A DNA stretch of 63,919 nucleotides, the filler included, from Reclinomonas americana ATCC 50394 (lineage: Eukaryota): the NCBI GenBank assembly GCA_048213135.1. It is 8 parts of 7 records of this genome, joined end to end, with 100 filler letters (N's around TTAATTAATTAA, not from the genome) between each part and the next. Parts side by side here need not be neighbours in the genome. Positions count along the whole stretch, not along the records: positions 1 to 24,959 come from PS015770.1; positions 25,060 to 30,306 come from PS015771.1; positions 30,407 to 45,700 come from PS015771.1; positions 45,801 to 47,660 come from PS015772.1; positions 47,761 to 54,766 come from PS015774.1; positions 54,867 to 58,665 come from PS015775.1; positions 58,766 to 62,480 come from PS015776.1; 1 more part is not named here. The stretch is one strand, 5' to 3'. Below, one piece after another: positions 1,829 to 61,881 of this stretch. The notes beneath the pieces were generated by a model. That model was given only the letters and a program-made list of their open reading frames with translations, had not been told where the DNA came from and ran no database searches. The translations under genes were made by a program, and so were the position numbers. How positions within the stretch are numbered: position 1 is the stretch's first letter; each line of letters opens with the position of its first letter.

Positions 1829-3434
1829 CTACTGAGGGTCACCGGCGGCCGCCGCCGCCGCCACACTGTCTGAGACGACGACGTCGGCCGACACCTTGGC
1901 GACCTCGGCTGGCGGCAATTGCGAGCACAGCGAGCATTCGGGGTTGGCTTCCATCTTCCACCGCTCAATCTGCGCGTGACACAACAGAAGTCAGGAACAA
2001 ACACGAGCGCGAGCGCGCGCACTCATCTACATACCTGCCAGCTCATCATGTAGACGATCACGCGGTTCGGCTGGTCCATCTCCATGCGCGCCGGGTAGTC
2101 CAGCAAGTGCTGCACGGCCAGGCCCACCATAGTGTGGCACTGTCGAACACGAGAGAGCATAAGTATTCTTGACCTCTTCCTTTTCTCGTCAGAAGCAACA
2201 GACCCCAACAGAGCACGAATAAATGGTGCTTCCGCCGCCCTGGTACAGATTGTCTGTGTGTGTGTGTGTGTGCGTGTGGTAAGGTGAGAGACTGGAGGTA
2301 CACACGGCGAGCACTGTCGACAGGCGGCAGACCTCGCGGAATAAAGTCGATTGTCTCCAGCTTGTCAATCACATCCAGTGACAGTCGCGCCTTGACCTCC
2401 TCGTTGGTCAAGTCAATCATGCACGCCCAGCAGGGGCGGCCAGTGGCGGTGGCGACTGACCGGTGGCACTCGAGTGAGGCGAACAGATTGAACGCATAAA
2501 AGAAACACGAAAACGCAACAGTCAACAGTGAGCGTGTGACCGTAGACGGGATCGGTGCCGCCGACCACAAGCGGAATGCGCAGCTTCAGTGCGAGCGACG
2601 CCACCGCATAGTCAAAGTAGTCACCTGTGGCGCGCGCACACACAGACACAGACAGGGACGACGTCGGTCAGATCGTGGAGATCATCATGGACTGCGGTGG
2701 ACTCGACGACGAACCAACATCGATGCCATTGAAGAGAATGGTGCACTCGCGTGCGGCCTGCACCACGAGGTGCCAGTTGATGACGGCTGCCGGTTTCAGC
2801 GCACAGTGAGCAGGAGGAGGGCATAAGAAAGAAGAGGAAAAAAAAGGCACCATCAGTGTGAATCGGAACAATTTCTGTGCCCAGATTGTGGCGTTCCAGC
2901 GAGTCCTTGGCGGCGTCCACCTTGCGCCGACCCACGTCGGCCTTGGAGTACAACATCTGACGATTGAGGTTGTGATAGTCGACCACATCGCGATCCTGTG
3001 ACAATGATTGGTTTCCCTTGGTGAGCACAGAGAGAAAGAAAGACATGAACATGTGCTGTGCTTGTGCGACTCATGCACACACCAAGATGAAGATCTTCTT
3101 GAAGCCGAGTCGCACACAGTCCATGGCACATGTGCAGCCCACACCGCCTGTGTGATGCGATGAATGAGCGCATTTCAGGCTTTCTTGATTTGTCTCACAA
3201 CTCCGCCGTGTTACACGCACCCACACCCAGAATGAAGGCCACTTGCTCACGCACAATCTCCTGGTCCCATCCACGGCATCGGCGTTGACTGTGCACACAC
3301 GGAAAGAGAGAGAAAGAGAGGTTCACTAATTGGATGCGCTCTTTTTCTCACACACATTACACACACCGCTCAAAGTAGTCAACAGCGGGGTGCTCCGCTG
3401 CTGCAGCTGCGTGTGCGTGCTCCTCTCCGCTCAT
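1829..3434 (-). CDS. ThiF/MoeB/E1-like adenylyltransferase, multi-exon
   Basis: Spliced: MSGEEH...DYFERQRRCRGWDQEIVREQVAFILGVGGVG (Rossmann GxGGxG), DRDVVDYHNLNRQMLY...DVGRRKVDAA, GRPCWAC and C-terminal NPECSLC (two CxxC Zn motifs). Stop TAG 1829-1831. Confidence 0.85.
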
Positions 3435-3712
3435 TTGCAAACCCACGGCGAAACTCCACGGTCCACCTCAATCGATTGGGGCGAGAAGATGACCGTTGCA
3501 TCCTTTTTCAAGTTTTCGGTGAGCAAAAGCCACTTGTACTGCCCTCCCTCTCCCACTGCGGCACGCTCTCCATCTATACACGCTCTGTCCTCCTCCTCCC
3601 CCTCACTTGCTCACTCGTTCACTCACGCACTGCTGACACAAGTTTGTTGCGTGTCACACAGACTGCGCGCGCGTCTCCCTCAAGAAAACCCCCCAACAAG
3701 ACCAACTCAGAA

Positions 3713-4128
3713 ATGCGCGCTGCTGCACTGTGGATTGCGGTGGCGGTGATGCTCGTGGCGGTGGCCGCGGCACAGGAAAACCCGGGTTTCCGCAGAGAAC
3801 GGTGCCCGACGCTCACTGATCGTCAGACACGCGCGGCAATGCAGTTTGACATCTCCAAGTTCACTGGCCAGTGGTTCCAGGTGCTCGACTACGACCTGTC
3901 GCAGTCGGCCTTCAAGTGCCAGGTGAGCAACAGAGAGAGAGAGACAAGTGGCACTCGTTGTCGCACAAAATAATTCCCAACGGCTCATCACTTTTTTGTT
4001 GTCTTTCTCTCATTGTGCAGAGCGTGAACAACCAGCTGACGTTCGCCGACGACGGCTCTACCATCCCGCAGTCTGTGACGCAGACGCTGACCTACAAGGA
4101 CACGTCGGATGGCAACTCAGTGCAGACT
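3713..4128 (+). CDS. Secreted lipocalin-like protein (3' end lost in gap)
   Basis: Hydrophobic signal peptide MRAAALWIAVAVMLVAVAAA, then CP...FDISKFTGQWFQV (lipocalin SCR1 GxW motif) and a downstream Cys. One GT-AG intron. Confidence 0.65.
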
Positions 4129-4427: not shown

Positions 4428-7400
4428 ATCGTCCACCTCGCTTCTGGTGGCGGTCCGTGTACGGCCATTCAATGAGCGGTGTGTGTGTGGGTGGATGGTG
4501 CCCGAGAAAAATCTGTCTTCAGTCACTCACTCACGTGGTGTGTCGCTCACAGAGAGAAAGCCGCCAGCAACATCTGTGTGGTGTCGGTGGAGGGACCCAC
4601 TACTACCATGATTCATCCCACACATGCTGGTGTGTGCGTCGACAGAAGGGATGATCACGCTCTGTATCTCCTCCCTCTCACGCATGTGTGTGTGGATCGC
4701 AGATGAGAAGCGCAGCTTCACGTTTGATCATTCGTACTGGAGTCTGGAGGCCGATGATCCACGGTTCGCCAGCAACGACACAATCTACAACGATATCGGA
4801 CGAATGCTGATCGACAACGCGTTTGAGGGCTACAACGTGTCGTTGTTTGCTTACGGGCAGGTTGGTTCTTTTTGCTGTGCCCCCTTCGCCCCCTTCCGCC
4901 CCTGCCACCACACTCATGGTTGTGCAGACGGGCTCCGGCAAATCGTTCACCATGATGGGCAACAACAACGACAAGGGCATCATTCCGCGTGTGTGCGAAG
5001 ACATCTTTTCCCGCATGGATGCCATGAGGATCGCGGCTGGCCTTCCGGTGAAGAGGCGCGACAAGCAAGCTGCGGTGTCGGGTTCCACCAGACCAGTCAC
5101 AGCGGCAGCCGGTGCCGGAACANNNNNNNNNNNNNNNNNNNNNNNNNNNNNNNNNNNNNNNNNNNNNNNNNNNNNNNNNNNNNNNNNNNNNNNNNNNNNN
5201 NNNNNNNNNNNNNNNNNNNNNNNNNNNNNNNNNNNNNNNNNNNNNNNNNNNNNNNNNNNNNNNNNNNNNNNNNNNNNNNNNNNNNNNNNNNNNNNNNNNN
5301 NNNNNNNNNNNNNNNNNNNNNNNNNNNNNNNNNNNNNNNNNNNNNNNNNNNNNNNNNNNNNNNNNNNNNNNNNNNNNNNNNNNNNNNNNNNNNNNNNNNN
5401 NNNNNNNNNNNNNNNNNNNNNNNNNNNNNNNNNNNNNNNNNNNNNNNNNNNNNNNNNNNNNNNNNNNNNNNNNNNNNNNNNNNNNNNNNNNNNNNNNNNN
5501 NNNNNNNNNNNNNNNNNNNNNNNNNNNNNNNNNNNNNNNNNNNNNNCTTGAAGGAGGGCTCGCAGGCAAGGTCTGTGACACAGTGACGACAGGAGAAGCA
5601 GTAGACATCTACTAGGGCCTCACTGTGCACCCCGGCAGAACGGTGGCGGCCACCAACATGAATGCCACGTCGAGTCGCGCGCACACCATTTTCACGATGA
5701 CATTCAGTCAGTCAGTTGTTGCGTGCAAGACGCGGTCGCAGTCTCGCCCACTTCTTCTTCTTCATCTTCTTCATCATCATCATCCTAAACCCTTCCATTT
5801 CCCGACATGCAGTGGGACCCCGTGGTTCAGCGTTCGACCTCCAAGGCTTCCAAGATCCACCTTGTCGACTTGGCCGGCTCGGAGCGCGCGCGTTCGGCAC
5901 AGAGTGTCGGCGATCGTCTGAAGGAGGGTTGCTCCATCAACCGATCCTTGTCGTGTCTCGGCAAGTGCATTCATGCTCTCGCCGACGCCTCGGAGAGCGG
6001 CGGAAGTGGAGCAGCTGCAGCAACGGGCAAGGCCGCGAAACCGTTTGTGCCGTACCGCGAGTCGGCTCTCACGTGGTGCGTGCCGTGTGTGTACAGTACA
6101 CTCTTCGTTGGGCGCCTGCCAGCATCTGACCCTTCACCCCACGCAGGTTGTTGAAAGAGTCGCTCGGCGGCAACTCGAAGACCGTAATGATTGCCACCAT
6201 CTCGCCCGCCGACGTGCACTACGAGGAAACTCTGTCGACCCTCAAGTACGCCGACCGCGCCAAGCAGATTCGCACCAAGGCCGTGGTCAACGAGGATCCC
6301 AACGCCAAACTCGTGCGCGAGCTGCGCATGGAGATTGAGAAGTTGCGGTCGCAGCTGACCGACACGCCCAACAATCCACAAGACGAGGTTGCCTCGCTGC
6401 GCGAACAGTTGCAGCAGAGTGAGAAACTCATTGCGGAGCTGCGCATGACGGCCAAGGAGCGCAAGGCCGTGACAGAGGCCATTAACAGAGAGCGTGCCGA
6501 GATTCTCAAGGTGTAGTGCGCTCACCGCTGCCTCCTTGGTTGTATTTTCCGCCGCTTCTCTGACACTGCAGAGGAGTAGGGCGCGGGTTTGATGCTCTCG
6601 GAACTCGGTTTCGATCAGCGATCGACTCCACACTTTGTCAACCTCAACGAGGACCCGCTGATGTCCGAGTGTCTCGTGTACTTTATCAAGGAGGGCATCA
6701 CGCACATTGGGCGCACCAACGTCAAGAACCCGCCTGACATTGAGCTCAGCGGCTCGTCGGTGGCCAAGGACCACTGTGTGGTGGAACGCCAAGGCAACGA
6801 TGTGTATCTGCGGCAAACATGCCAGGATCCGCGGTACCGTACTTTTGTGAATGGACAACTGGTGCAGGATGTGGTGCAACTGCGGCAGGGCTTCCGAGTC
6901 ATCATTGGTGGCAATCACATTTTCCGATTCAACCACCCGGCAGAGGTGGCCGCCATGTCTGGTCGACGCAAGCGCCGAGCTTCCTCTGCCGCCTCTGCCG
7001 CCTCACACATGAGTGAGGAGGGTGCGCCGGTGGACTCGGACGAGATTATCGACTGGGAGTTTGCGCAAAAGGCGAGGACAAGCGCAACACTTCTGACATC
7101 CGTGAGTTGTCGCTAACCGTGCTTTTGTCGACATTAGGAATGGATGCGTGCACAGGGCTTCATTCAATCCGACGAGCTCGTACGGCAGATCGAGGAGGAG
7201 CGGCAAAAGGCACGGGAGGCGCTGGAGGAAGAGCATCGGCAACGTGAGCGAGAACTGCAACAGATGATGAAGAAGCAGGAGGAGCTGCTGCGTCTGAAGG
7301 AGGAAGAGGTGCGTGCGAATTGCTGCTGCGCACGCTGCCCTGCGCTGTTGTTGTTCTCACTCTTTTTCTATGTTTCTATCTTGCAGTTTGAGAAGCGACT

Positions 7401-9706
7401 GCAGTCGCTGCATCAGCGCGGAGCGGTGGCCGAGGAAGAAGAAGTCCGGAAAGAGAGGGTACGCATACATGGTGCCAGTGTGACACTCTGCCACGTGCTG
7501 ACGGACTGTGCATGACAGGCACGTGTGCACGAGCGCTTTCACAGCGAACGCACGGCACTCGAGCAGAAAAAGGATCGCCTGGCCGAGGAGAACGAGTGGC
7601 ATCGACGCATGGAGGAGTATTCGGCGGCCGAAAGCAAGGCCAAGGTGGTCATCGAGGAGGCGCTGATGAAGGTGCGCCCGGGTGCTGTTGTTGCTGCTCT
7701 CCTCTTCCAGTCCCCCGCTCACTCGCACCACTACAGCTCATGCCGTTGATCACGCAAGCCAACTCGTGGGCCGAGGCACTGCAGCGCCCGATGCGCTTCG
7801 AGGCCAAGATCGTCACGGCGTACGCCGAGATGAAGAGCATCATCAACCGTGATGCCTCCTCGACCGTCTCGCGCAACTCCAAGCCAGACATTTCGTTCTT
7901 CAAGAACTTGGCCAACGTTGTCGTCCGGGTCAACAATTTGTGGAACGACACGAGCTGCATGTGGGAGGAGGGCAAGTTTGTCAATCGCTACTACATTATG
8001 CAAGAGGTGTACGAGCGGGCGCTGGACGCTGTCGACTGTCGCGAGCCGTACGTCCTCAGTCTGGAGGCCGACCCTTTTTACGATCCACCCGAGACGCAGA
8101 TTATTGGCGTCGCGCTGCTGTACCTGCAGCCACTCGCCTACCGGCTCGACTCGATGTGCTCGACCCCGATTTTGGACTACAAGGGCGCCGAGAAGGGCTA
8201 CATCAACGCAGAGATGTTGCGTGCTCACGTGGACACGTAGGGTGTGCAGATGATTGTGGTCTTGCTCACTTTTGCGTCGCAGCATTCCGGTGACGGCCGA
8301 CGGCGAGGAGGATGTGGATCCGGTGGCGTCACCCAACGAACTGATCGGTCAGCGTCTCGACTTTGAACTGCGTGTGCACGAGCTTGAGGGTCTGGAGGAC
8401 AGCATGGCCAACGACGTGTACGTGCACTACAAGCTGCTGGAGCAGTCGCTGGCGTCGGACTCACATCTCGGCCACGCCACCACTTTCACGCTGGGCTTCA
8501 ACAAGCACTTCACCTTTAATCCAGTGACGAAGCAGCTGCTGACCTTTCTCCAGCGCGAGGCGGTGGCACTGGAGGTGTACGGACACGCCGACGAAACCAA
8601 CAAGCCTCACGCACTGGCGCTGAATCAGCATCGGCGTAACGGGGGTGGTGCCGGCTACCGCCACGCGCATCTAGGATTGGACGAGAAGCGCGCAGCGGTG
8701 GCCGCCGAGGAGGCCGAGTTGAGCCGCAAGATTCAGCAGTACGAGAGGAATTTGCACCAGCGCGGCGAGTCGAGTGTGGCCGCCGACGACGACGACGAGG
8801 AAGGTGGGGAGGACGACGAAGGCTACGGCACCGGCTACGGTCAATGGGGCTACGGTCTCGGTGGTGACGACGAAGAGGACGAGGAAGGTGTGGGTGCAGA
8901 GTACGACGACGACGACGACGAAGGGGACGCCGCATATGGTGAAGACGACATTATCGCTGGTGAGGTTTACGAGGGCGAAGGCGACGGTGAGTTTGACCGT
9001 GTCGGTGGCGACGAGGACGACGATGACGACGGCGGGGAGGAGACAGGCGGGCGGAGAAGGCATCGACGCCGCTCACGGTCGCCCGAGGTGTTGGAGCGTG
9101 AGCGTGAGCTGCGCGAGTTGCGCGAGAAGAACGACGTGATTGAGCGAGAGCGTGCACGGTACGAGTCGGAGCACGAGCGACTCGAACGGGAGCGCAAGGC
9201 CGCTGAAGACGAGAGGCAACGCCTGTTGGCTGAGCAGCAGCACTTGGAGCAAGTTAGGGAGCGTCGGCGGCAGCTGGAGGAGGAGGAGCTGCGACGTGTG
9301 GCGGAGATGGAGGCGAGGTTGCGAGTGGCGGAGCAAGCACTCTCCAAGTTGGGTGTGGTCATTCCGCCGTCGTCGCCACCGCCACCGCAGGCGGCCGATG
9401 GCAAGCACACGCCGGGCGTCAGTGGCGTCACAACGGACACACCAGCTGAGGCAGGCACGCCGTCGGCCAAGTCGCCGGCCGCTCTGGAGACGGAGAAGGC
9501 GCTGGAGGCGGAGCGGTTGCGCAACCAGCAACTGATGGAGGAAATGGAGCGCATGAAGCGCAGCCTGGAGGAGCGTCAGGTGAGCATCCCCTCGTTGTGA
9601 GAGAGTGAGAGAGTGAGAGAGAGACAGGTCGCTGACTGGTGATTGGTGAATGCAGACGGCGGGCGCCAGCGGGAGCGGCAACTCGAAATCCTGTGTAGTC
9701 TTGTAG
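4428..9706 (+). CDS. Kinesin-3 family motor (motor + FHA + coiled coils + C2-like region; KIF28/KIF13-like) with C-terminal CaaX; start exon not resolved, internal gap
   Basis: [31 protein letters not shown] (P-loop), [49 protein letters not shown] + FHA ([11 protein letters not shown]), DWEFAQKE, DPFYDPP. Last exon 9656-9706 reads [16 protein letters not shown]. Confidence 0.93.
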
Positions 9707-11477: not shown

Positions 11478-14071
11478 ATGAGTTCTGGTGACGAGGATGA
11501 GCGCATGAGCGTGGAGGAGGAAGAGGCAGACGAGATGGAGGAGGAGGCTGACAGCGACGATGAGCCAGTGGACATGGAGATGTCGGGAGGCGACGACGAT
11601 GATGATGATGATGATGATGATGATGACGATGAGGTTGGTCGAAAAGATCGCATTCGTATAAACTGTGTATGTTGATTGACGTGGAGTGAGGGTGCAGAGT
11701 GAGGAGGAGGAGCTGGAGTTTGAGATCGACTCGCCGTATCCGGTGGCGAGTGGGAGCGGAGGCATGTCGTCGCGTGCGGGTGGGCGTCCGGGCGAGACGT
11801 TTGTGGTGTTGGGAGCGGCGGACATTGTGGATCGGCAGCGGCGGGATGTGATGTGTGTGGCGGAGAGAGCCAATGTGCCACTGGGAGTGGCGGCGACGCT
11901 GTTGAGGCACTTCAAGTGGAATGTCGAGCAGTGCCTGCAGCGGTACTTTGACGACGAGGAGCGCACGTGTGCGGCGGCGCATGTGAGCACCGATGTGGAG
12001 TTCACACGCGGAGAGCCGGGAACAACTGTGTTGTGCGAGGTGTGCATTGAGGAGTATCCGGGACCCGATATGGTCGCACTGAGGTGAGTGTTGCCCATCG
12101 TCCCATGGCCCCGGGCACCACCTGACGAAAGAGCCTTTTGCTGTGCAGCTGTCGACACTTTTTCTGCACCGGTTGCTGGAAGCAGTATCTGGCGGCGTCG
12201 GTGGAGGCCGGTTATGCGTGCATCTACTCGACGTGCATGTTCCCCAAGTGCGACAAGGTGGTCAGTGATCAGGTGTGGGCGGATCTGGCCGACCCCGAGG
12301 TTCGCGCCAAGTACACCAACTATCTGCTGCGCTCCTTTGTGGAAGATGTTGCGTCGTTTTTTATATGTACTCCCGTCTCTTGAAGTGACGCTGATGGATG
12401 TTTGTGTATGTTGCGCTGCAGAATCCCTACCTGCGATGGTGTCCGTTCCCCGACTGCGGGCGAGCCGTGTCGATTTCCAGCTCGGGTGTGCGCAACGTGC
12501 AGTGTGCTTGTGGATTTGAGTTTTGGTGCGGTGCTGTTGTTGCATGCACGACTGCGGGGAAACACCCCATCTCACTCTCCACACAGTTTTCAGTGCAACG
12601 AAGAGCAGCACGATCCGGCGTCCTGCGAAATGGTGTCTCTGTGGAAGCAGAAGGAGTCCTCCGACAGCAGCAACGCACTGTGGCTATCGGCAAATGTGAA
12701 GAACTGCCCAAAGTGCAAGTCACCGATCGAGAAGAACGGCGGTTGCATGCACATGACGTGCTCAAGATGCCGGTGCGTGACATGATGCACGCGATCAGTG
12801 ATGCTCGTGTGTGTGTGCCTGGTGCTGAGTGCGCTCGCCCTCAGCCACGAGTTCTGCTGGATCTGCACGGAGGACTGGACACGGCACAGCAACGAGACTG
12901 GTGGTTTCTACAAGTGCAATCGCTACCAACCGAAANNNNNNNNNNNNNNNNNNNNNNNNNNNNNNNNNNNNNNNNNNNNNNNNNNNNNNNNNNNNNNNNN
13001 NNNNNNNNNNNNNNNNNNNNNNNNNNNNNNNNNNNNNNNNNNNNNNNNNNNNNNNNNNNNNNNNNNNNNNNNNNNNNNNNNNNNNNNNNNNNNNNNNNNN
13101 NNNNNNNNNNNNNNNNNNNNNNNNNNNNNNNNNNNNNNNNNNNNNNNNNNNNNNNNNNNNNNNNNNNNNNNNNNNNNNNNNNNNNNNNNNNNNNNNNNNN
13201 NNNNNNNNNNNNNNNNNNNNNNNNNNNNNNNNNNNNNNNNNNNNNNNNNNNNNNNNNNNNNNNNNNNNNNNNNNNNNNNNNNNNNNNNNNNNNNNNNNNN
13301 NNNNNNNNNNNNNNNNNNNNNNNNNNNNNNNNNNNNNNNNNNNNNNNNNNNNNNNNNNNNNNNNNNNNNNNNNNNNNNNNNNNNNNNNNNNNNNNNNNNN
13401 NNNNNNNNNNNNNNNNNNNNNNNNNNNNNNNNNNNNNNNNNNNNNNNNNNNNNNNNNNNNNNNNNNNNNNNNNNNNNNNNNNNNNNNNNNNNNNNNNNNN
13501 NNNNNNNNNNNNNNNNNNNNNNNNNNNNNNNNNNNNNNNNNNNNNNNNNNNNNNNNNNNNNNNNNNNNNNNNNNNNNNNNNNNNNNNNNNNNNNNNNNNN
13601 NNNNNNNNNNNNNNNNNNNNNNNNNNNNNNNNNNNNNNNNNNNNNNNNNNNNNNNNNNNNNNNNNNNNNNNNNNNNNNNNNNNNNNNNNNNNNNNNNNNN
13701 NNNNNNNNNNNNNNNNNNNNNNNNNNNNNNNNNNNNNNNNNNNNNNNNNNNNNNNNNNNNNNNNNNNNNNNNNNNNNNNNNNNNNNAGCGGAGAAGCTGG
13801 CGCAGCTGTTTGAGCAGACCGACAAGCATCCGTACAATCGCGAACAAATGCAAATCGCCATGCGTGATGCTGAGCGGGTGAGTTGGTGGCAAATTGTACA
13901 TGTGTGTGTAGGTGTCGAGCATGTCCTCACACGCACGCACATGTTGCTGAATTGGTGCAGAGGAGACAACACATCATGGAGACGGAGCCACCGTCACCAC
14001 TCATCAACATTAGTGGAAATCCGTTTGCCGCCGCCGCTGCTGCTGCCGCCGCCGGCTCCGGCATTCGATAA
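11478..14071 (+). CDS. Ariadne-family RBR E3 ubiquitin ligase (internal gap)
   Basis: Acidic N-terminus, [10 protein letters not shown] (UBA-like), RING1 CEVC...[10 protein letters not shown]...[24 protein letters not shown]...CACGFEFCFQC...HDPASC, RING2 [21 protein letters not shown]...[18 protein letters not shown]. Confidence 0.93.
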
Positions 14072-45619: not shown

Positions 45620-45800
45620 GACGAGACGAGACGACGACGACGACGTACGACGACGAGACGACGACGTACGACGACGTACGTACGTACGACGACGTACGAC
45701 NNNNNNNNNNNNNNNNNNNNNNNNNNNNNNNNNNNNNNNNNNNNTTAATTAATTAANNNNNNNNNNNNNNNNNNNNNNNNNNNNNNNNNNNNNNNNNNNN

Positions 45801-47660: not shown

Positions 47661-47784
47661 NNNNNNNNNNNNNNNNNNNNNNNNNNNNNNNNNNNNNNNN
47701 NNNNTTAATTAATTAANNNNNNNNNNNNNNNNNNNNNNNNNNNNNNNNNNNNNNNNNNNNTCGTCGGACGGTACGAGTCTACCA

Positions 47785-50200: not shown

Positions 50201-51865
50201 ATGGTGGAAGCTGATACGCGCAAACGCCTCATTCTGAACACTTGTGTGTTGGTGTTCCTCGTGTGGTACTCCCTCTTCAACTTCCGACTCTTCGCCTCCA
50301 CGCTGTTGACACTGCCGTTCATCGCCTTCGCCTTCCTCGACAAGTCCACTGTGCTCTTCCGCCTGCTCATGGACAAGGTGTGTGTGTGTGTGCGTGTGTG
50401 CGTGGAGAAGGGGGGTGACATTGCGTGTGTCCTCGCACTCTCTCACACTCACACACGTGTCTGTGCTATGTAAAGTGCCCGCCTGTGCGTCGCTGGTTCT
50501 GGAAGCGCTGGTACGACTTTTGCGGACGCGCTGCGCAGACCAGTCAGATCCACTTCCTCAACTACGGCTACGATAGCCCCGTGTATGCCAACTTCCCAGT
50601 TGCGACACATGTGTGTGTTGTGTGTGTGGAAAGAGAGAGAGAGAGACTGATGGATGTGAGGATTTACGTACAGTTGGACGGATCGCAAGAGCCCAATCGA
50701 TATTCGATTCAGCTGTACCACTTTACGGCGACCTCGTCGGGCCAGTCGTTGCAGAATTGCGATATCCTCGATGTGGGATGCGGGCGTGGCGGTGGCACCA
50801 GGTCCGCGATTCCTTGCCTCCCATCTCTCTCTCNNNNNNNNNNNNNNNNNNNNNNNNNNNNNNNNNNNNNNNNNNNNNNNNNNNNNNNNNNNNNNNNNNN
50901 NNNNNNNNNNNNNNNNNNNNNNNNNNNNNNNNNNNNNNNNNNNNNNNNNNNNNNNNNNNNNNNNNNNNNNNNTCCTCATGTGTGTGTCATGCGCTGACAC
51001 GCGTGATCCCATTTGGAATCGTCAGTTTCCTGAGCAGCTACCTGAAGCCCAAGTCGATCACCGGACTGGACTTCTCGCAGGAGAACATCGACAAGGCGCG
51101 TGAGGCGTTCCGCACCAACTCGCGTCTGCGCTTCGAGTCTGGCGACGCCGAGAACATGATCAACTTCCAGGACGAGTCTTTCGATGTGGTCGTCAATGTC
51201 GAGTCGTCGCACTGCTACGGCAACTTCCCCAAGTTCCTGTCGGAGGTGCGCCGCGTGCTGCGCCCCGGTGGCTACTTCCTCTTTGTGGATCTGCGCGGAG
51301 AGGACAAGATTGCCGGCTTCCTCGATGCGCTGCAAAAGTCGCGCATGGAGACCGTCAAGACCACGGACATTACGGAGAACGTGCTGCGTGCGCTGGAGCT
51401 GGAGAGCCCGCGCAAGGAGAACTTTGTGGAGACCACCATCCCGCGCTACCTGCGCTTCATCGTGCGGTGNNNNNNNNNNNNNNNNNNNNCGTTGGGAGAT
51501 GCCGAGAAGACACTCTACTCTGTCATGATGTGTTGAGCTCATTCGTTCATGTGTGCAGTGAGTTCATGGCCGTCAAGGGCTCCAACATCTACAACGCCTT
51601 CGCGAAGCGCACTCTGCAGTACCACCACGTGATCCTGCGCAAGGAGGGTCGCAGCGCGGCGGTCGCGAGCGCTGGCTCGGCGTCCTCGTCGTCGCCGGTG
51701 TCGTCCAGGTCACCACCGTCGCCCACGGCCGCCGGTGGCAACGCCGGTACCTTTGTGGCACCGCCCGTGTCCGACACCAATCGTTGCGCGCTCTTGTGTC
51801 TACTCTCGTGCACAGTCTAGTGCCGTCGCTCATTCGTGTGTTATGCAGCCACCACGGTCGAGTAA
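50201..51865 (+). CDS. Class I SAM-dependent methyltransferase (bacterial Fmt/phthiotriol-dimycocerosate MT-like) with N-terminal hydrophobic anchor
   Basis: FLNYGY, NRYSIQLYH, DILDVGCGRGGG (motif I), GDAEN..F.DESFDVVVNVESSHCY, EVRRVLRPGGYFLFVD, DITENVLRAL. Confidence 0.85.
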
Positions 51866-52020: not shown

Positions 52021-53274
52021 TTACTTCTTTCCGCGCTGCGCCTTGCCCGACGGTCGCAGCAGTGCCGGCATCAGCTTGCCGGTCGGTCGCAGTGCCATGG
52101 GGATCTGGTCGTCACTCAAGCCGCGCACCGACAGCAACCGCGCCGCGCGCTCCAGCGGAGTTCCGCCGCACTGTGGGCGAGAAGAGATGAGCACGCACAT
52201 CATGTGGAGGCACATGTATACACACACACACACACACCTTCAAGTTCCGGCGTGTCAACTCATTCTTCAGTGCCTCGGCACCGTATCGACTCAGCAGCTC
52301 CTCCGGCGTGTCCATATCAAGGTGAATGCCGGCCGTCGGACTGCCCGATGAGCCACTCACGTGACTCTCCTCCTCGCTTGCCGGTGGCGACGGTGCCGAA
52401 GATGCTATCGCTGCCGCAGCAGCCGCAGCCGCAGCGCCCGTGGTGACAGTGGTCGTGGTGGTGGTGGTGGTCGTCGTCGTGCTCGACGACCCTCCATGAC
52501 GGCGGTGACCCTTCTCTTCCTCCTCCTCGTCCTCCTCCTCTGCTACTGCTTCCTCGTCGTCACTATCCACTGCTCCATCCACACCAAGCAGCGCATCGTC
52601 CAGTGCACGCATGTGACGAGAGCGCTTCCGGCGCGGCTTCAGAATCGCATCCAAGTCGCCCTCCGCCACACGCTTCTCGCCACGACGTCCAGCCGCCGCC
52701 GATCGCAGCTCGCGCATGCCAGACTCCAAGCTCTCCACAATCGCCTCGCGGTGCTTCTCAGTTGACTTGCCGTACTCGCGCAGCGCCGATTGCAACTGTG
52801 TGTGACACGAGAGAGTCAATAACCGCCACGACGAAGAGAATGAGAAGGTCTCTCGCTTACCTGACTGCGCTCCTCCGCCATCCGGTTCTCGCGCTCAATC
52901 CACTTGCGATCCTCCGTCACCTTTGTGCGGTTCTCATCCGAGTCGGCCGCCACCGCCGTGCGCACCACCTCCTCCGTGTGCACATGTCGCAGACGACGAC
53001 CCTCCAAATCGCGACACGAGTCAAAGTTGGTCTGTGGAGATGAGAGCAATCGGAAGAGTCAGATGAGAGAGGGAGAGAGGGGAGGGGGAGAGAAAGAGGA
53101 GGAGCTTCATCTCTCACACAGACACTGAGAGAAGAGGAGTAGCATGCGATGATCGCTTCTCCTCTCTCAATCTCTCTTCGCTCACAGAGATAGAAGGGGA
53201 GAAGAGAAAGAGAGAATGGAGAGAAGAGGAGAAGGACGTGTTGATTGCTCTCCGCCCTCTCTCTCCACTCACAA

Positions 53275-53305
<31 letters not shown>

Positions 53306-54166
53306 ATAGAAAGCTTGTGCTGATTGCTTCATCTCTTCTTTCATCTCTCCCTCTTAACTTTCAAAGATAGAAGAAAGAGAAGGGGAGCAGGTTGTGTTCA
53401 CTGAGTCTTCCTCTGTTTCTCACTCTCGCTTTACACTCACGCAGAGCCACAGAAGCGGAGAAGAGAGAAAGCGTGGCCTGTTGATTCATCTCTTCTTTCA
53501 TCTCTCCATCTTCACTAGCAAGGATAGAAGAGGAGAAGGACGCCTTCACTACTTCTTACTCTCTCTCTCCTTCTCTCTGCACTCATTCGAGACAACAGAG
53601 AAGAGTACGTTTGTGCTTCATGTCTTCTTCCTCCCCTTTCCTCTTCTCACCTCTCTCTTCTCTCTTCTCTCCTCTCTCTCTTCCCTCTTCTCTTCTCATC
53701 CCCCTCACTTGTCACTCAGAGTCCCAGTGCACTTCGACCCGACTTTTTTTCACGCAACAGTCTTCTTCTGCCCAACTCGCCGCGGGGCGCCACGCAAAAG
53801 CGCGCCAAAACCACCCTTGCCACCGCACAACGCTCCATCGCGCCACACAAACTCCAAAAACACCGTCACAACAACAACCATCTGCGCCGACATGGCCACC
53901 GCGCGCTTTCTCTCCTCGTGCATCACACGTTCCCAGGTAAGAGGCTGCGACGCTTGCTGCTTCCCATTGATGACAACTGATGCAGTGGTGGACAACACTG
54001 TGCGACCGGCCCAGCGCCACGCCATGTGCTGCGCGGGAATGCCACACGCGCGCTCCACGCGCTGACACACGTGTTGCAACGATGCAGCCTGTTGCTCATT
54101 GTCGAACGCAAGGCATAGTGTGCGTCGTCCTTGCGACACGGGCAATCCGCTCACGATGATCTGCAT
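52021..54166 (-). CDS. SDE2: SDE2 (ubiquitin-fold-activated splicing/replication-stress factor)
   Basis: UBL-like N-terminus, LCGGKGGFGALLR cleavage motif, KKTTNFDSCRDLEGRRLRHV, C-terminal SAP-like GAEALKNELTRRNLKCGGTPLERAARL. Confidence 0.93.
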
Positions 54167-54766: not shown

Positions 54767-54901
54767 NNNNNNNNNNNNNNNNNNNNNNNNNNNNNNNNNN
54801 NNNNNNNNNNTTAATTAATTAANNNNNNNNNNNNNNNNNNNNNNNNNNNNNNNNNNNNNNNNNNNNGTCTGTCTCATATGATGGTGATGATTGTGTGGCA
54901 G

Positions 54902-57900
54902 GAGCAACGCGGGAATGCTGAGCTGGAGGAGGCGTTGAATGTGGCGCAGGCGCGTCTGCGGGAGAAGGAGGAGGAGTTGGAGGCGGCGGTGTTCAACGTG
55001 AATCGTCTGGAGAAGCGCGTCACGCAGCTCATGTTTGATGCGGAGGAGGCCACGCGCAAGGCGGCGAGTGGATCGGCGAGTGGTGGTGGCTTGCTTGGCT
55101 GGCTTGGTGGTGGATCGGCGGCGAAGAAGGCGCAGATGGACACGGAGGAGGTGTGTCTCGCTGTGTGTGTGCGTGATCACATTGGTGTCATTTCGTGACC
55201 ACGTGGATGGTGCAGGCTCGCAAGGAGATTGCGGTGCTGCGGGAGGAGCTGGAGAATAAGATCACGGAGAACGAACAGTTGCACATGCGTAACTTTGAGA
55301 TGAAGCAGGATTACGATGCCCGTATTGAGGATGTGTCGAATAACGTGGCAAGGCTCGACGCGCAGTTGAGCGAATTGAAGGAGGAGTTGGCGCGCAAGGT
55401 GTGCAGTGGGATCGTATCGATCAGGAGAGGCAGCAGCAGCTCGTGAGAACGCTCACTTTGTGATGCAGACTGCCGAGGCGCAGGCGGCCAGGGAGACGGC
55501 AGAGGATGAGGCGGAGAGGATGCGAACGCAGCTGTCGGTGCTTGACGAAAGACTGAATGCGCTGCGAGCAAGCGGACGCACTTTCGAGTCGGATGCCGTC
55601 AACGTGCAGCGGCAACTACGGGAGGAGATTGACAGATTACTAGCCTCATTACCGCAGGTGGGGCATTTGATGCGGTTTAAACTGGCGATTGGGAGAGTCT
55701 CCTCACCTCCCTTTGTTTCGCAGCCGTTCGGTAGTCCGGCGGCGGGTGGTGGCGGCAGCAGCAGCAGCAGTGTGACTGGTGTCGGTGGCATGTCATTGTC
55801 TTCGCCGGGCGTGGGGCGCAACGGCATGATGTCATCCGCCGAGAGGTACGTCACTCCACCACCGCGTGTTTTCGGTCGCTGCGTCTCATTGCGGAGCGCA
55901 CAGTCAACAACACTCGCGAGTGCAAGAGGCCACACAGCTCTTCCGTCACATTGTACGACAGCTGTCGCTGCACTATCGCGCCGTGTGCGACTCGATCACT
56001 CGAGCGAGAGCAGACAACGTGACGGTGGTGACCAAGGCCACAGATGCGCTGAATTCGTACATGAAGCTCACCGATGCGGTGCTCGAGGTAAGTCGCCCTG
56101 TAGGCGTTGAATGGAATACGACTGTGTGCTCACCTCTTTGTGTGTTGCAGAAACTCGGACACTGCACACCAGCATCACTGTTGACGTTGGCGCTGCCGGA
56201 GGACGCCTCCATCGCGTTGAAGCGATGGATCGACTTTCACTCGCACGGTGTCGCCCTGCACAGCATCATGCTGCGGAACGAGATCACAGAACAGGAGCGT
56301 GCCAATCTGGAGACGCAGACGCAGAATGTGAAGACACATGTGTGGAATCTGTCGAGCGTGTTTTCCAAGGGTATGGCACACTTTGTCTCTCTCACTTTGC
56401 GGGCTCTGATCGACTGACACTTGGTGTGCACAGGAACGTTCTCCGAACACGGTGCTGTTCTGTGCATGAACATCAAGGGTGCACTGGACGGACTGGCGTC
56501 GCGTCTGGCGCAAATGTTGCGTCTTAAGCATGAGTCCATCGCGATGATGTACCGACCTTACTTCTCCTTGTGTACAGTGCATTTGTGCGCACCGATCCAC
56601 GCATCATCGAGACGCTGCAGTCGTGCTCCACGTACCTGTACCAGCTGCACGAGTTGCTGCGCGAGATTGTCGCCCCGCAATCGTCAATTGTTGCGTTGTG
56701 GTGACGTGCACTTGGCTGCGCAACGATCTTCTTACTGTGTGCGTTGCAGTGGGGCGACGATGACTCGGCATCCGGCGGTAACGACGGGTCAGGTGATCGA
56801 GCTCGGTACGTCGACAACACATTGTGTGTGGTGTGAAGTGTGCCAGAGGCTCACTTGCACGCATGCAGAGGCGGACTGGCATCACATCGCATGGCGGTGC
56901 GAAACTTGAGATTAATTCGGCAGGCGCACACGAGTCTCGAGTCTGTGGTGGTGGGTGTGACCTGAGGAGTCGTCGACGAATGCCAGTTCTAGTTTTTTTC
57001 ACTCACAGTGGCGTCGCTGCAGGAGGAGCATGCGCGTGCCAGAGCCCTTCTGGAGCAACTAGTTCCGCATCACGATGGCAAGGTATGATGCGTGCAAGCA
57101 TGGAGTGTCGCAGTCTTCTTACCCTGCTCACTTTCCATAATGCAGTCACTTGGAGCCACGCTGCCGGATCTCGTGCTTGCAGTGCATGGCGAGTTTGACC
57201 GCGCACAGCAGCAGGTTTGCGTTGTGTCCATGCTGGGAGGTGTGTGTGATGATGCTCACACGCATGCGATGCAGTTGCAAGAGATGCAACGGCGGCGCGA
57301 CCAGCTGCAGGAGGCGATGGATGAGTGCCAGCGAGCACGACGGATCGATCGCGACATGGCACAACGGGATATCTCTGCGCTGCGAAATCTCGTCTCTGGG
57401 TTGGAGCGTGCACAGCGAGCGCCGACCCCCACTGCGTCCTCCGAATCTCTTCCATCGACGCGAGTCACTGCATTGGTCTGTGTGTGTGTGTGTGTGTGCA
57501 CGAGCGAACTGGCCTTTGTAATGTCGACTGACTCTGCCTCCCACAGTCGTCGCGATTCGACGAGGACGACAGCAGCGGCGGCGCGCGTCAGGATGGCGCA
57601 GGTGCAGCGGTGCAGCGGCCATCGGAAGGCGCAGCCGCGGTCTCTCCAGCCGCACCGGCGAATCTTGCTTCATCGGCTGGCGGTGACGTTGTCAGTGGCG
57701 CAGCCTCGGGTTCCTCGTCGTCTCTCTCTGCCGCTGTCGATGCCGTGGACGCCTCGCCAGCATCGGCAGTTACCGAATCGATTGGTTCATTATTGCAGAC
57801 GGGAGCGCGGAGTGCGCCGTCGCCACCAACCGTGGTGCAAGCGAGTGAGTGTCACCGCATGTTGCGCAACTGCTTTCCGTCGCAAGTATTTGCTCACGCG

Positions 57901-58565
57901 GCACTGTGCAGTGGCCGTCTTCGAGTCGAACAATGAGAGCCACGGCACCGACAGTGTGCCGTACCGGTTCTTGAGCAGTCGCCCGCATGGCAGCAAGGGC
58001 CTGGTGCGTTATTGTTGACACTGGCGTGTCGTATCAGATAAACCTCACGCGGTCTGCGCAGTTTTCGAGTATTCCACCCGAGGTGTTGCAGCGCGAGAGA
58101 CAACTGGAAGAATTCTTCCTCACTCGCATCCAACGCTTGGAGAACGAGGTGAGGGGGCGGCGCGTGAGTACAACATGTGCGCCCGTGTGTTCACCTCCTT
58201 CTTTATTTTGCAGCTTCGCGTGGCCGACCGCAAAGCTGTCGATTACCACGTCGACTACCAACGCGTGCAGATGAAGCACGACAAGTTCGTGGAGGAGAAG
58301 GAGGCCACCGAGTTGCAGCTCGCACAAACCGAGCAGCACCTCAACGAAGTCTCTGTTGCGTCGCGCGCGCAATGACACCGAAACAAAAAGAAACTGATCG
58401 CATCGCATCGTGCGCTCGCAGGATGAACTGGAGACCACTCGCCGCAACTACGAATCGCAACTATCGGCGCTCTCGGACCTGCTCTGCGAGGCCAACGAAC
58501 GAGTCAACGAACTCGAGCAAGAGCTTCGTCGTCTACGTCGAACGTCGGGCGGCAACGTTCAATGA
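54902..58565 (+). CDS. PPP1R21: PPP1R21 (KLRAQ1/FERRY Fy-2)-like coiled-coil protein, 5' partial, ~17 introns
   Basis: N-terminal LEAAVFNVNRLEKRVTQL...LREELENKITENEQLH and C-terminal RERQLEEFFLTRIQRLENELRVADRKAVDYH...DELETTRRNYESQLSALSDLLCEAN resemble the two conserved PPP1R21 coiled-coil regions as I recall them. Confidence 0.78.
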
Positions 58566-58765
58566 AAGGTCAACGTCCTGTGCTCCTTTGGCAGGTGCAC
58601 CAATCAAAAGACAGGGGGGAGACGGAAGGCACAGACATCCCCCGTCCTCCTTCTCTCTCTTTGTCNNNNNNNNNNNNNNNNNNNNNNNNNNNNNNNNNNN
58701 NNNNNNNNNTTAATTAATTAANNNNNNNNNNNNNNNNNNNNNNNNNNNNNNNNNNNNNNNNNNNN

Positions 58766-59477
58766 CTGTATGAGATTGGGAATGTGATCGCCAATGCCAG
58801 TCGATTGTCGTTGATTGCCGAGGTACCGCCATTAAACCCGGAGAGCGAGTGGTGAGCGAGCCTCTACTAAGCAGGAGGACGTGTTGTTGCTGGCTCACGC
58901 ATGCAATGTGCAGGGCCGATCGTGCGACGTTCATTGTGGACAAGTACTGTCCGGAAAGCACTCGAGAGGCTCTGAAGAAGCGCTTGCTGCGCGCGTCGCT
59001 CTCCAGGTCTGCGTCCTCTCCTGCCTCGTGCCCGAGCTATTCTCGTGCTCACTTTCTTTCATATGTGTTGCATCAGCGAGCATCTGAAATCAATAGGGCG
59101 CTTCGACACGCTGGCCAACGTGCGGATAATAGCGCTGACGGGCGTGCCGCGTGAGAACCTCACCAAGCCGCACCTGTTGCGTGTCTTCCGGCCAAGCGGG
59201 CAGTCGCGAGAGACGAGACCAGTGGTGCCGACGGCCGACGGAGTGGTCACGTGGGAGGAGTACGTGGTGTTGGGCGTGCTTGGCGTCGACAGTCCCCTGC
59301 ATGCGTATTTGTATGTGGAGGATGTGTCGGAGAGGTTGGTGTTGTTAGTCAAGGACATCGTGTGTTTTGTGGGTGAAACTTTCCTAACTATTTCTTGCAC
59401 AGTTCGTCGTCACTAACAGTCGCCACGGCCGTGCTGTCACTGCAAAGATTACGGCCGGGTCGAGTAGAACCAGTTAA
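58766..59477 (+). CDS. 3' part of an unidentified spliced gene
   Basis: Coding-like exons separated by GT-AG introns (~58852, ~59007, ~59334). No family recognised. Confidence 0.4.
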
Positions 59478-59805
59478 TGTTGCGTCTTCCTCCATCGTCC
59501 CTTCTTCTCCCTCTGTTGCGCTCACCCACTCGAGCAGTTAAGTTTTGCCGATTCGGCCTTTGCGAGCTCCAGTCGAGGAGCGACGTACGGGCGCGCATCG
59601 CTCTCCCTCACCGTCACTCTGGAGATGTTTGGCAGTCCGTGAATGTGTGAGCGAGAAAAAGAGATCTTTATCGGGTGGGAAATATGTTTTGCATGGGCGA
59701 AGAGAAAAAGAAGATGGAATGAACATTGAAAATATGTAATGTGCGTCGCACACGACGCGCGCATGTAACCGTGACACATGGAAGACGAGATCAGCTATTA
59801 GCACC

Positions 59806-61881
59806 TCAAAGCTTGGCGCGCAGGCCAGCCGACTCGGACACGACGCGCATCTCGCGCAGCGCCTCGGCCAACAGCTTGGCAAAGGTGCGGCAGCCGAGCC
59901 ACTTGGAGGTGAGGTCGTACACAATGTCGTTGTTGTTCACCATGTAGCCCGAGCCCACGCATCGCTCGTACACCGGTCCTGCACGCAGAAACAAGTGAGG
60001 GTGGGGGCGCAAATAAAAGGAGAAGCTGCAGATGCGACGAACCAAAGCCGAACATCGAGAGGTTGGGGCTGCCGCAGTGGCTGGTCGACAGCAACCACGT
60101 GTTGGTCCAGCGGTAGGCCGGATCGCGGTACAATGCCGGCATCTCGCCGCCCTCCTGCTCGGCGATCTTGCGCATACCCAGCAGGTGGCGATCGACACCT
60201 TGGCCGGAAGCAGCCAGGCGCGACACCTCGCTGTGGCGCTCGCATGCCGTGCGCAGCAGCTGAGCCTTTTGCTGCACTGCCAGCGACGAGTCCTCGAACG
60301 CCTTGCAGAAGGCCACCGACTCGTTGGTCACCGAGCGGATGGTCTCCGTGCGGCCGTGCAGGTACGGACGCATGGTGCACGACTCGTAGGTGGCGGTGAA
60401 GCAGCCGAAATGCCTGTAGTAGGCCAGCTGCAGGGCCATTTGTGCAAACGCATCCGGACCCATGCCCCACTTGACGATGGAGTTCTTGCCAAAGTCCTTG
60501 AAACGCAACACCTCAATGTCCATCTACGAGGGAAGAGTGCGGTGAGCAGGCGTGCCTTGCGGGAAGAAAGAAGACAAGAGGGGGTGGGCGGACCTCGCGA
60601 TTGGCCAACTCGATCTGGCGGCTGCCGTTCTCAATGTCGGCCAGATTCTCGCGGTTCAGCTTCCACGGCAGACGCTCGACCGCGGCCGCCTTGGAGGCAG
60701 CGGCACCAGCACTGGCGATCTTCTCGCTGCGTGTCGAGGAGTGAGCGTGCACAGCGAACACAAATATAAAGACAGAGAGTGCCACCGAACCTGTCCTCGA
60801 CAATGTAGTTGGCGTAGCGGAGCAGGCTGTGTCCGTCGACGCTGGAGTGCTCCATGTTGATGCCGGCCTGACCCGAGGGGGAAACGATGATCTGGATCTT
60901 GTCGAACCATCGGTTCTGTCCGTCGCCGTGCTGCAGCGCGCGCGACCACTCGCTGTCGCCAGCCGGCTCCTCCTCCTCCAAGCACACGACCAGAATGGCA
61001 CGCTGGATGCGATCCAGGGACTGGCGGTTCTCGGGCAACAAACGCTGGTAGGCAGCAGCAAAGAAATCACGCTCCGACGCCGTCAGAGCACCAATGGCCG
61101 GACCACGCTCAGCGGGGGCCGAGGCCAACAGTGCGCGAATCGAACTGTGCGAGTTCGAGTCAGCGGGGGAAGGAAGGGAAAGGAGAGAGAGTGAACAAGT
61201 GCGCAACGCTTCAATCTCGCCAGTAGTGGCGGGGGTGCCGTCCTTGTGGATGACCTCCACAGAGTAAAAATGGTTGCGGTGGGCCACCACAATGTGGCGC
61301 GAGCCCTGGTACACCTCGATGCTGTCGCGGTTCTTGTACGGAACGCGGCACGTCGACAGAATGTACGGGAACTGCGACATGTCAATCGGCTTGTCGCGCA
61401 TCGTGTCGGGCGTCAGCGTCTCGCTGTGGAGTAACAGCGCATGAGCAAAGGAAGGGGGGAAAGGGGTAAGAGAGAGTGTGGGAGACGCAACGTGTCAAGC
61501 ATGTGCTTGAACTTGACCGTGGAGGTGACGAGGCGGGCCACGCGTTGCGCCTGCGAGGTGGATGGTGAGTGCGCAGAATGAGAGAGGGCAAGGCAGGAGA
61601 AAAGAGGGAGAAAACAGACCTGATCCTTGGCTCCTGCGTCGTTGCGGAAGCCAAAGTGGTAATTGACATTGTTGGGGTTGGCATCGCGCGTCATAAAGTA
61701 CATGTCGAACCACCAGTCCTGTCACCAGAGAGATAGTCAATCCACTGTGCGCCTGGGGAGAGTGACGATTAGTGCGTACCTCCAGCCAGCTGCCGTCGAC
61801 CTTGGTCTTGGCAAACTCGCGCAGCTTGCGGTCCAGGCGCTCTCCGTCGCCACCAGCCTTGCCGAACTCGGCCACCGCGGA
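59806..61881 (-). CDS. Carnitine O-acyltransferase (choline/carnitine family), peroxisomal (PTS1), 5' partial
   Basis: SWLEDWWFDMY, IDMSQF..I.STCRVP, NRWFDK, catalytic NMEHSSVDG, PDAFAQMALQLAYY, TYESC...HGRTETIR, GQGVDRHL, LSTS, FG/GPV. Ends RAKL*. Confidence 0.93.

Follow-up and report, generated by a model that had tools for sequence, protein, structure and literature searches.

Introduction

Recognition of the 5′ splice site, or donor, is usually viewed as the reading of one degenerate consensus by one U1 5′ end, with non-canonical pairing registers at the fringe. Here we examine the donors in a 63,919-base stretch of the genome of Reclinomonas americana ATCC 50394 (assembly GCA_048213135.1), referred to as the window, 4,067 bases of which are N. 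We show that a second, real class of GT-AG donors exists in this genome: Y/GTTGCGT, with rarer GTTTCGT and GTTGCGC forms, which serves about one seventh of the introns (the slash marks the exon-intron boundary, −1 being the last exonic and +1 the first intronic base). These donors, and the introns that they open, are called class 2 below.

Shifted and bulged registers between donors and U1 are established in human, where validated non-canonical registers account for approximately 1.5% of sites, according to PMC4856993. Human sites paired with a shift of +1 are rare and of the GUUAAGU type, a model site reaching −6.5 to −7.6 kcal/mol with the standard U1 (PMC4856993, Table 2). Like class 2, they lack +5 G and have G+6 and U+7, their G+1 can take the partner of −1 G, and they are cut at the GU. 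They pair well with the standard U1, however, whereas here the heptamer opens about 14% of introns without forming a stable duplex with that end; class 2 also carries C at the place where A would form a pair, and its −1 base is preferentially T or C. In registers with a bulge or an asymmetric loop (PMC4856993) the +5 G/+6 U anchor is likewise moved by one base, and GU[U]GCGU is compatible with a bulge at +2/+3, but a bulge predicts retention of −1 G, which is not seen in class 2.

A division of donors into right-handed (−1H/+5G) and left-handed (−1G/+5H) classes has been tied to LUC7 paralogues (PMC11842720). The present case resembles it in that the split between exon-anchored and intron-anchored sites is genome-wide there and −1 trades with the intron anchor. 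By ordinary numbering, however, class 2 is −1H/+5H, without either of the two usual anchors, −1 G and +5 G; this is the combination disfavoured in that scheme, into which class 2 fits only with an anchor at +6. Class 2 is, in addition, one rigid word, whereas the LUC7-linked classes are a graded tendency.

Among protists, the U1 5′ end of Entamoeba, AACAAAC, has fully co-evolved, and Mastigamoeba has a candidate U1 with ACGUAC replacing ACUUAC, while in Thecamonas and the Mamiellales U1 is standard even though there are donors with +4 C (bioRxiv 10.1101/2022.06.08.495308). Entamoeba and Mastigamoeba share with the present case a protist genome with atypical donors, and the C that is invariant in class 2 would find a pairing partner in a U1 with G at position 5; each of their genomes, though, has a single transformed consensus, whereas here two donor classes coexist. 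U12-type introns also combine a rigid, long donor word with the lack of an exon consensus and coexist with ordinary introns, but their donor is RTATCCTT, and class 2 has the branch site and branch distance of the main class. Irimia and Roy reportedly described, in 2008, rigid GTGCG(T/C) donors in Mamiellales green algae. A GC-rich genome, short introns and a GCGT donor core are common to those algae and to the window. The algal donors nevertheless form one class in the canonical register, with a standard U1 (bioRxiv 10.1101/2022.06.08.495308).

Non-canonical, intron-anchored donors are already known, and the reader of the Y/GTTGCGT motif is putative. Among the papers listed by a full-text literature search for the motif strings, in T and U spellings, none concerns splicing, to judge by titles and abstract openings, although a description given only as a logo or in a figure would escape it.

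A second class of donors

The initial annotation of the window listed 23 introns beginning with GTTGCG, about one in seven by a rough count, and noted that they almost never follow an exonic G. All 23 sites are present on the strands given. The −1 base is T in 11, C in 7, A in 4 and G in 1 (at 23942), so that 22 of the 23 are not preceded by G, and +7 is T in 19. In the window as a whole, there are 85 GTTGCG hexamers, where 100 shuffles gave 65.0 ± 8.6 (one shuffle reached 85), and 33 GTTGCGT heptamers, where they gave 14.9 ± 3.6 and none reached 33.

Introns were predicted with a gene parser that uses dynamic programming with codon log-odds, GT..AG introns and frame bookkeeping; except for seven junctions fixed by homology (see below), the introns discussed here are predictions. 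The initial version of the parser, trained on long open reading frames, returned 30 introns without signal and was replaced by a heuristic generic codon model. With this model and a bonus for acceptor and branch, but with donors left unmodelled, GTTGCG opened 5 of 121 introns, tied with GTGCTC and after GTGTGT (6). A single, self-trained donor matrix yielded 154 introns, of which GTTGCG opened only 10, because a single matrix penalises this word. Parses with a mixture model used 19 GTTGCG donors, then 21 after the length limit for introns had been set to 800 nt and one region had been freed. This final parse contains 148 introns, 146 of them without N at the donor, and its commonest donor hexamers are GTGTGT (34), GTTGCG (21), GTGAGT (16) and GTGCGT (14). 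A control parse that required only GT and had no donor model gave 199 introns, a set that surely contains more false ones, and GTTGCG was again second (17), after GTGTGT (20). For the comparisons below, class 2 comprises the 24 GTTnCG donors of the final parse (21 GTTGCG and 3 GTTTCG), and the ordinary, or main, class the 107 donors with +5 G.

GTTGCG therefore starts 21 of 146 introns (14%), in agreement with the rough estimate of one in seven. If the positions of the donor were independent, 0.4 such donors would be expected among the 146, and 1.3 instead of the 17 seen in the GT-only parse. An unsupervised two-component mixture likewise separated the donors into GCAG/GTGTGT (around 80%) and A(C/G)AT/GTTGCGT (around 20%), as the proposal of a second donor class would have it; the log-likelihood rose from −2228 to −2150, a gain of 78 nats, on the donors of the single-matrix parse, and later from −2081 to −1926. 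The class thus emerges both in a parse without any donor model and in an unsupervised mixture. No variation is seen at +3 to +6 among the 21 GTTGCG donors, and in all 24 class 2 donors +5 is always C, +6 always G and +7 T in 21.

GTTGCGT is also a highly dedicated donor signal: 19–20 of its 33 occurrences are donors in the parse, compared with 14 of 100 for GTGCGT, 34 of 254 for GTGTGT and 16 of 73 for GTGAGT. The parse, which was made independently of the list of 23 sites, uses 20 of them and leaves 46068(−), 46823(−) and 50599(+) unused; it adds a GTTGCG donor at 31206(−) and three GTTTCG variants, at 24223(+), 41679(−) and 62189(−). The individual introns are given in Table 1.

One copy of GTTGCGT, at 60503–60509(−) and after T, is part of a carnitine acyltransferase exon that homology verifies (IEVLRFKD) and is followed by neither a branch site nor an acceptor, which indicates that the heptamer by itself is insufficient for splicing. 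Seven copies fall outside gene models; all seven are preceded by a base other than G, and several are then followed by a branch-like site and CAG. Copies outside gene models include those at 3646, 18627, 45836, 62643 and 63701 on the plus strand, each after T or C. Some of the copies outside models may be donors of introns in untranslated regions or in genes that were not predicted.

Of three similar shifted variants noted in the initial annotation, the GTTTCGT in the EFHC gene is a donor in the parse. The GTTGTGT at 47516(−) is undecided: at 47513–47516(−) there are two in-frame donor options 3 nt apart, A/GTTGTGTGAG and T/GTGTGAGAGA, and the variant is indistinguishable, on its sequence, from an ordinary GTGTGA donor. 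The GTTACGT assigned to PEX19 lies outside the gene model; it is the only one in the window (11099–11105(−), A/GTTACGTC), is situated upstream of the PEX19 exons, and may start a long first intron.

Placement of the junctions

Homology searches were done with single exons, and each placement assumes that there is no insertion or deletion in the 1–8 unaligned residues at the exon ends. On this basis, seven class 2 junctions are gap-free: those with donors at 18046, 23942, 53758, 61491, 61207, 12348 and 5718. At 61491 and 61207 it was the spliced protein that aligned with the 13 carnitine acyltransferases, without a gap across either junction. Pfam left the Ariadne, SMG9, PPP1R21 and 61207 junctions unplaced, and searches with solved structures settled those of Ariadne and of the kinesin. 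The peptides cited in the initial annotation as pinning four of the junctions, RDQ/YMR (Ras), FVED/NPY (Ariadne), ELH/SLQL (SMG9) and KKT/TNF (SDE2), all read as claimed. Conserved protein runs continuously across the junction in Ras, Ariadne and SDE2, but the SMG9 junction at 31419 is only half fixed, by its downstream exon, as the upstream exon gave no SMG9 match.

Cleavage at the GC three bases downstream, an alternative named in the initial annotation, would add one residue at each of the seven fixed junctions and is contradicted there. More generally, the class might be an artefact of misplaced junctions, at that GC for instance, or of wrong gene models. The junctions are predicted from sequence alone, which counts against our interpretation, 3 of the 23 claimed sites are outside the parse, and in-frame alternatives exist at 50599/50611 and 47516/47513. 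Nevertheless, the seven junctions are gap-free against hidden Markov models (HMMs), chains of solved structures or 13 homologues, and the class appears without any donor model, so that we give an artefact almost no credence.

Dependence on the exon and composition of the motif

The −1 base is G in 1 of the 24 class 2 donors and in 84 of the 107 ordinary ones (Fisher p = 6e-12), and the same dependence is found in the GT-only parse (1 of 20 against 67 of 94, p = 3e-8). Seen from the exon, class 2 makes up 23 of the 54 introns that follow a base other than G and 1 of the 92 that follow G. This is not what the background composition of the codon positions provides, since 7.6 class 2 donors with −1 G would be expected from it (p = 0.001). 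Strong ordinary hexamers retain −1 G in 64–88% of cases (GTGTGT 21/33, GTGAGT 14/16, GTGCGT 12/14); class 2 is therefore not merely another strong intron-side motif, nor GTGCGT with a bulged U.

The core of the motif is equally constrained. In all 19 donors of the form GTTGnGT the variable base, +5, is C, while the matching base of GTGnGT donors is T in 33, A in 16, C in 14 and G in 1 (p = 3e-10); in the GT-only parse the figures are C in 14 of 14 against T 20, C 8 and A 7. None of the 18 occurrences of GTTGTGT or of the 7 of GTTGAGT is a donor in the parse, although the GTTGTGT at 47516(−) had been read as one earlier. The invariant +5 C and the lack of use of GTTGTGT and GTTGAGT indicate that a one-base shift of the main motif does not by itself produce the class 2 core.

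These data bear on the possibility that the standard U1 reads class 2 with one U bulged at +2/+3, that is, as GTGCGT with an extra U, G+1 and U+2 being paired normally and the remainder beyond the bulge, and the shortage of −1 G being a by-product of compensation. GTTGCGT does equal GTGCGT with one inserted T, and a +2/+3 bulge register is documented, with 68 predicted human sites (PMC4856993, Table 3). In that register, however, C9 of U1 would still be free for −1 G, yet class 2 almost never has it and GTGCGT nearly always does. Moreover, the standard U1 is predicted to form no stable bulged duplex at sites lacking −1 G (the model site ACAU/GUUGCGUCU comes to +0.5 kcal/mol), and GTTGTGT and GTTGAGT are unused in the parse even though GTGTGT is the commonest donor. 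We consider a bulge very unlikely.

Ordinary donors that lack −1 G showed a preference of their own. In the 23 ordinary donors without −1 G, +4 is T in 17 (against 31 of the 84 with −1 G) and A in only 2, and 12 of them are GTGTGT. This suggests that +4 U, and not +4 A, is the compensating base in ordinary donors without −1 G.

Features shared with other introns

All 24 class 2 introns start with GT and end with AG, and the acceptor is CAG in every one. Their median length is 68.5 nt, against 68 nt in the main class. A branch-like CTNAY site is present in 22 of the 24, and in 83 of the 107 main-class introns, with its A at a median of 18 and 19 nt, respectively, from the 3′ splice site; the class 2 branch motifs, CTCAT, CTCAC and CTGAC, are those of the main class. 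Class 2 does not differ from the other introns in length, branch site or CAG acceptor and is therefore handled by the same major spliceosome; it consists of ordinary major-type introns with a different 5′ end.

Two other types of intron were considered and rejected. The introns are not U12-type, because the donor is GTTGCGT and not RTATCCTT, and because the branch motif, which is not TCCTTAAC-like, and its distance agree with the main class; the single RTATCCTT in the window is not at any predicted donor. Euglenozoan non-conventional introns are described as lacking GT-AG ends and as having intron ends that pair together (PMC12621601). Class 2 introns have GT-AG, and their 5′ word is not paired with the 3′ portion of the intron: the reverse complement of the 5′ end is found inside the intron in 3 of 21 of them, against 32 of 91 in the main class.

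A fixed 5′ word in an unusual exon context could also be the mark of a mobile family, in which case class 2 introns would be introner-like remnants with a GTTGCGT 5′ end, inserted at sites not ending in G. Their interiors, however, resemble one another no more closely than do those of other introns (local alignment scores have a mean of 7.9 in both classes and a maximum of 17, against 19 in the main class), target-site duplications are absent (the end of the exon equals the end of the intron in 0 of 21), and length and branch features are as in the main class. This origin appears highly improbable.

Predicted pairing with U1 and candidate readers of the motif

Against the standard U1 5′ end, in the best register, class 2 sites have a mean pairing energy of −0.4 kcal/mol, compared with −6.7 kcal/mol for the main class, of whose 107 sites 82 take the canonical register. 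The initial annotation had proposed that U1 pairs with GTTGCGT in a register shifted by +1, and that energies in the canonical and +1 registers should be compared; the comparison shows that the standard end gives class 2 no stable duplex in any register. Because the standard end cannot hold a class 2 site, a changed small nuclear RNA (snRNA) or another factor is needed. The shifted register does account for the loss of −1 G: G+1 would then occupy C9 of U1, the partner of −1 G, and an exonic G would be of no benefit. It does not fit the energy with the standard U1, the invariant +5 C or the preference for a pyrimidine at −1. The real motif is Y/GTTGCGT, in which a standard U1 accounts for neither the C nor the Y.

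A hypothetical U1 end with G at position 5 (G5) improves the mean energy of class 2 to −4.6 kcal/mol, with 19 of the 24 sites in the +1 register. It also orders the possible cores as GUUGCGU (−4.2 kcal/mol), GUUGUGU (−2.6) and GUUGAGU (−1.2), which fits the invariant C. The best explanation that we can offer, and one that may well hold although we stop short of calling it probable, is that class 2 is read in a displaced register with an adapted U1 or a protein partner of U1. The donor would then be independent of the exon: G+6 and U+7 would stand for +5 G and +6 U, one position deeper in the intron, and G+1 would take the usual partner of −1 G. Pairing displaced by +1 would occur first with the U1 5′ end and later with U6. 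The pairing RNA would carry a G opposite C+5, as in the ACGUAC candidate U1 of Mastigamoeba; alternatively, a protein partner of U1 would supply the missing affinity. Where the exon ends in G, many ordinary donor words would work and would crowd out the single special word, which would leave class 2 after the other exon ends.

Several observations weigh against reading class 2 in a displaced register with an adapted U1. The shifted register places −1 opposite U10, so that A, or G, should be favoured, and A is seen rarely; the −1 base of class 2 is T in 13, C in 8, A in 2 and G in 1, that is, T or C in 21 of 24. Only 3 purines are found where 12.1 would be expected from the codon-position background (p = 1e-4), and in phase-0 introns −1 is T in 7 of 10, although T ends only 16% of codons. 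A G5 end would also make GUGCGU the top ordinary donor, contrary to what is seen in ordinary donors without −1 G, of which 12 of 23 are GTGTGT and 2 are GTGCGT. That this organism has a G5 U1 is a guess, the window containing no U1, U5 or U6 gene: the Rfam search detected no snRNA gene in it at the gathering threshold, and at E ≤ 1 only weak microRNA or low-complexity look-alikes. Finally, all our counts come from one 64-kb window and from our own gene predictions.

A different way to obtain a good fit would be a dedicated second RNA (a paralogue of U1, or a small RNA of another kind) whose end is fully complementary to (Y)GUUGCGU and pairs in a normal register of its own, in a major spliceosome with two U1 RNAs. 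The motif is indeed rigid and rich in information (+3 to +6 and +7 as given above), specific (19–20 of 33 heptamers used as donors, against 14 of 100 for GTGCGT) and independent of the exon, and the standard U1 fails to explain it, since C+5 and the −1 pyrimidine fit no register. However, Rfam found no such RNA in the window, the 3′ signals are identical to those of the main class, and a single changed base in U1 already yields usable pairing. We regard a second RNA as unlikely, though worth keeping in mind. The broader arrangement to which it belongs, with two parallel 5′ readers in the major spliceosome, U1 for G/GTGNGT and a diverged U1 paralogue or a sequence-specific protein for Y/GUUGCGU, we rate no higher and likewise think it unlikely.

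Recognition might, on the other hand, rely mainly on something other than U1 pairing, if YGUUGCGU were read by a protein (U1C, a LUC7-type factor or some other that binds RNA) or through early, direct pairing with U6. In favour of this, no register works with the standard U1 end, and the −1 pyrimidine and the invariant C+5 resemble a sequence-specific contact rather than a requirement for helix stability. LUC7 paralogues are described as favouring donors with intron-side strength (PMC11842720). Ordinary donors without −1 G favour +4 T, as mentioned above (17 of 23). In yeast-type GUAUGU sites, +4 U pairs with U6. However, we know of no factor that reads a YGUUGCGU-like motif, and we think this explanation distinctly unlikely. 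Three mechanisms are thus candidates: displaced pairing with one adapted U1, a second RNA dedicated to class 2, and a contact driven by protein or U6.

Individual introns and other features of the window

Table 1. Class 2 introns, variant donors and candidate sites. Positions are those of the window; "parse" denotes an intron of the gene parse.
Feature	Position	Strand	−1 base	Intron start	Length (nt)	Evidence and remarks
Kinesin-3 motor intron	5718..5812	+	T	GTTGCGTG	95	Parse; KIF1A chain 1i6i, residues 229/230
Kinesin-3 tail intron	8216..8282	+	T	GTTGCGTG	67	Parse; CTCAC branch site and CAG
Ariadne/ARIH intron	12348..12421	+	T	GTTGCGTC	74	FVED/NPY; ARIH1 chain 4kbl, 271/272 continuous
Ras intron	18046..18125	+	A	GTTGCGTG	80	RDQ/YMR; HMM 66, split codon Q = 67, then 68
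EFHC (DM10) intron, the only one with −1 G	23942..24010	+	G	GTTGCGTT	69	DM10 HMM 32/33
Claimed donor	50599..50673	+	A	GTTGCGA		Undecided; parse takes GTGTGT at 50611, with shared acceptor, 12 nt apart and in frame; homology does not settle it
GTTGCGC-variant intron	51783..51848	+	C	GTTGCGCG	66	Parse
PPP1R21-like intron	56516..56577	+	T	GTTGCGTC	62	Parse
PPP1R21-like intron	56690..56749	+	T	GTTGCGTT	60	Parse
PPP1R21-like intron	58355..58421	+	T	GTTGCGTC	67	Parse; following exon matches PPP1R21_C from residue one
Class 2 intron	2456..2519	-	T	GTTGCGTT	64	Parse, after the minus strand was freed there
RMND1/DUF155 intron	15305..15368	-	C	GTTGCGTC	64	Parse
Class 2 intron	21454..21524	-	T	GTTGCGTC	71	Parse
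Class 2 donor, acceptor uncertain	27010..27244	-	C	GTTGCGTT	235 (parse)	Parse; TTGCAG ≤120 nt downstream of the donor
Class 2 intron	28995..29065	-	C	GTTGCGTT	71	Parse
SMG9 intron	31352..31419	-	T	GTTGCGTC	68	ELH/SLQL; parse; downstream exon aligns with human SMG9 304-350 from its first residue
SMG9 intron, absent from the earlier list	31149..31206	-	T	GTTGCGTT	58	Parse
Macro-domain gene intron	36388..36443	-	A	GTTGCGTG	56	Parse
Claimed leucine-rich-repeat gene intron	46000..46068	-	C	GTTGCGTC	~69	No gene model; CTCAC and CAG 69 nt downstream
Claimed donor	46755..46823	-	A	GTTGCGA		Undecided; lies within a 280-nt intron that the parse opens at 46969; possible intron ends at 69 or 134 nt
Class 2 intron	47071..47141	-	T	GTTGCGTG	71	Parse
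SDE2 intron, GA-rich	53032..53758	-	T	GTTGCGTG	727	KKT/TNF; SDE2 HMM 22/23; parse with introns ≤800 nt
Carnitine acyltransferase intron	61145..61207	-	C	GTTGCGCA	63	Gap-free against 13 homologues
Carnitine acyltransferase intron	61424..61491	-	C	GTTGCGTC	68	Gap-free against 13 homologues
Variant intron (GTTTCG), EFHC gene	24223..24296	+	T	GTTTCGTC	74	Parse
Variant intron (GTTTCG)	41601..41679	-	C	GTTTCGTT	79	Parse
Variant donor (GTTTCG)	62189	-				Parse
Further candidate outside gene models	59479..59537	+	T	GTTGCGTC	59	To GAGCAG; CTCAC and CAG; not in parse
Further candidate outside gene models	63382..63451	+	A	GTTGCGTG	70	CTCAC and CAG; not in parse

The window contains seven 100-base spacers with the structure N44-TTAATTAATTAA-N44, at 24960–25059, 30307–30406, 45701–45800, 47661–47760, 54767–54866, 58666–58765 and 62481–62580; each of them stops all six reading frames. 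Separate contigs are thus joined together here, and genes and neighbourhoods are consequently not readable across the spacers.

No tRNA was found in the window. The mir-598 model of Rfam matched twice on the minus strand, below its gathering score of 69, at 20194–20330 (41.8 bits, E = 1.8e-5) and at 21768–21865 (29.4 bits, E = 0.048); these two matches are probably copies of a hairpin-forming repeat.

Among the protein queries, the exon of CCT-alpha at 37462–37818(−) has as its top named match the jakobid Seculamonas ecuadoriensis, with 79% identity, most other matches being near 70%. None of three protein queries returned a near-identical protein: top identities were 52% and 79% in two of them, and the third, the 438-residue kinesin-tail exon, had no match at E ≤ 1e-5 among longer proteins. 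A search of metagenomes with the 160-residue acyltransferase exon matched 128 pattern stretches, none of which was confirmed. The CCT-alpha match hints, on the strength of one exon, at a jakobid-like flagellate other than Andalucia, which is described as intron-poor (PMC7050145).

Implications

In this window a rigid eight-base word without −1 G and without +5 G serves about one seventh of the introns and is almost mutually exclusive with an exonic G. In practice, gene finders that use a single donor matrix miss class 2 introns. Were two readers to operate in parallel, around 15% of introns would constitute a third intron class, with a major-type 3′ end and a 5′ reader of its own. If class 2 is confirmed genome-wide with RNA, it would provide a natural system for the study of how the cut site is fixed under a displaced pairing register, and would reveal whether snRNA 5′ ends or U1 proteins co-evolve with a subset of introns.

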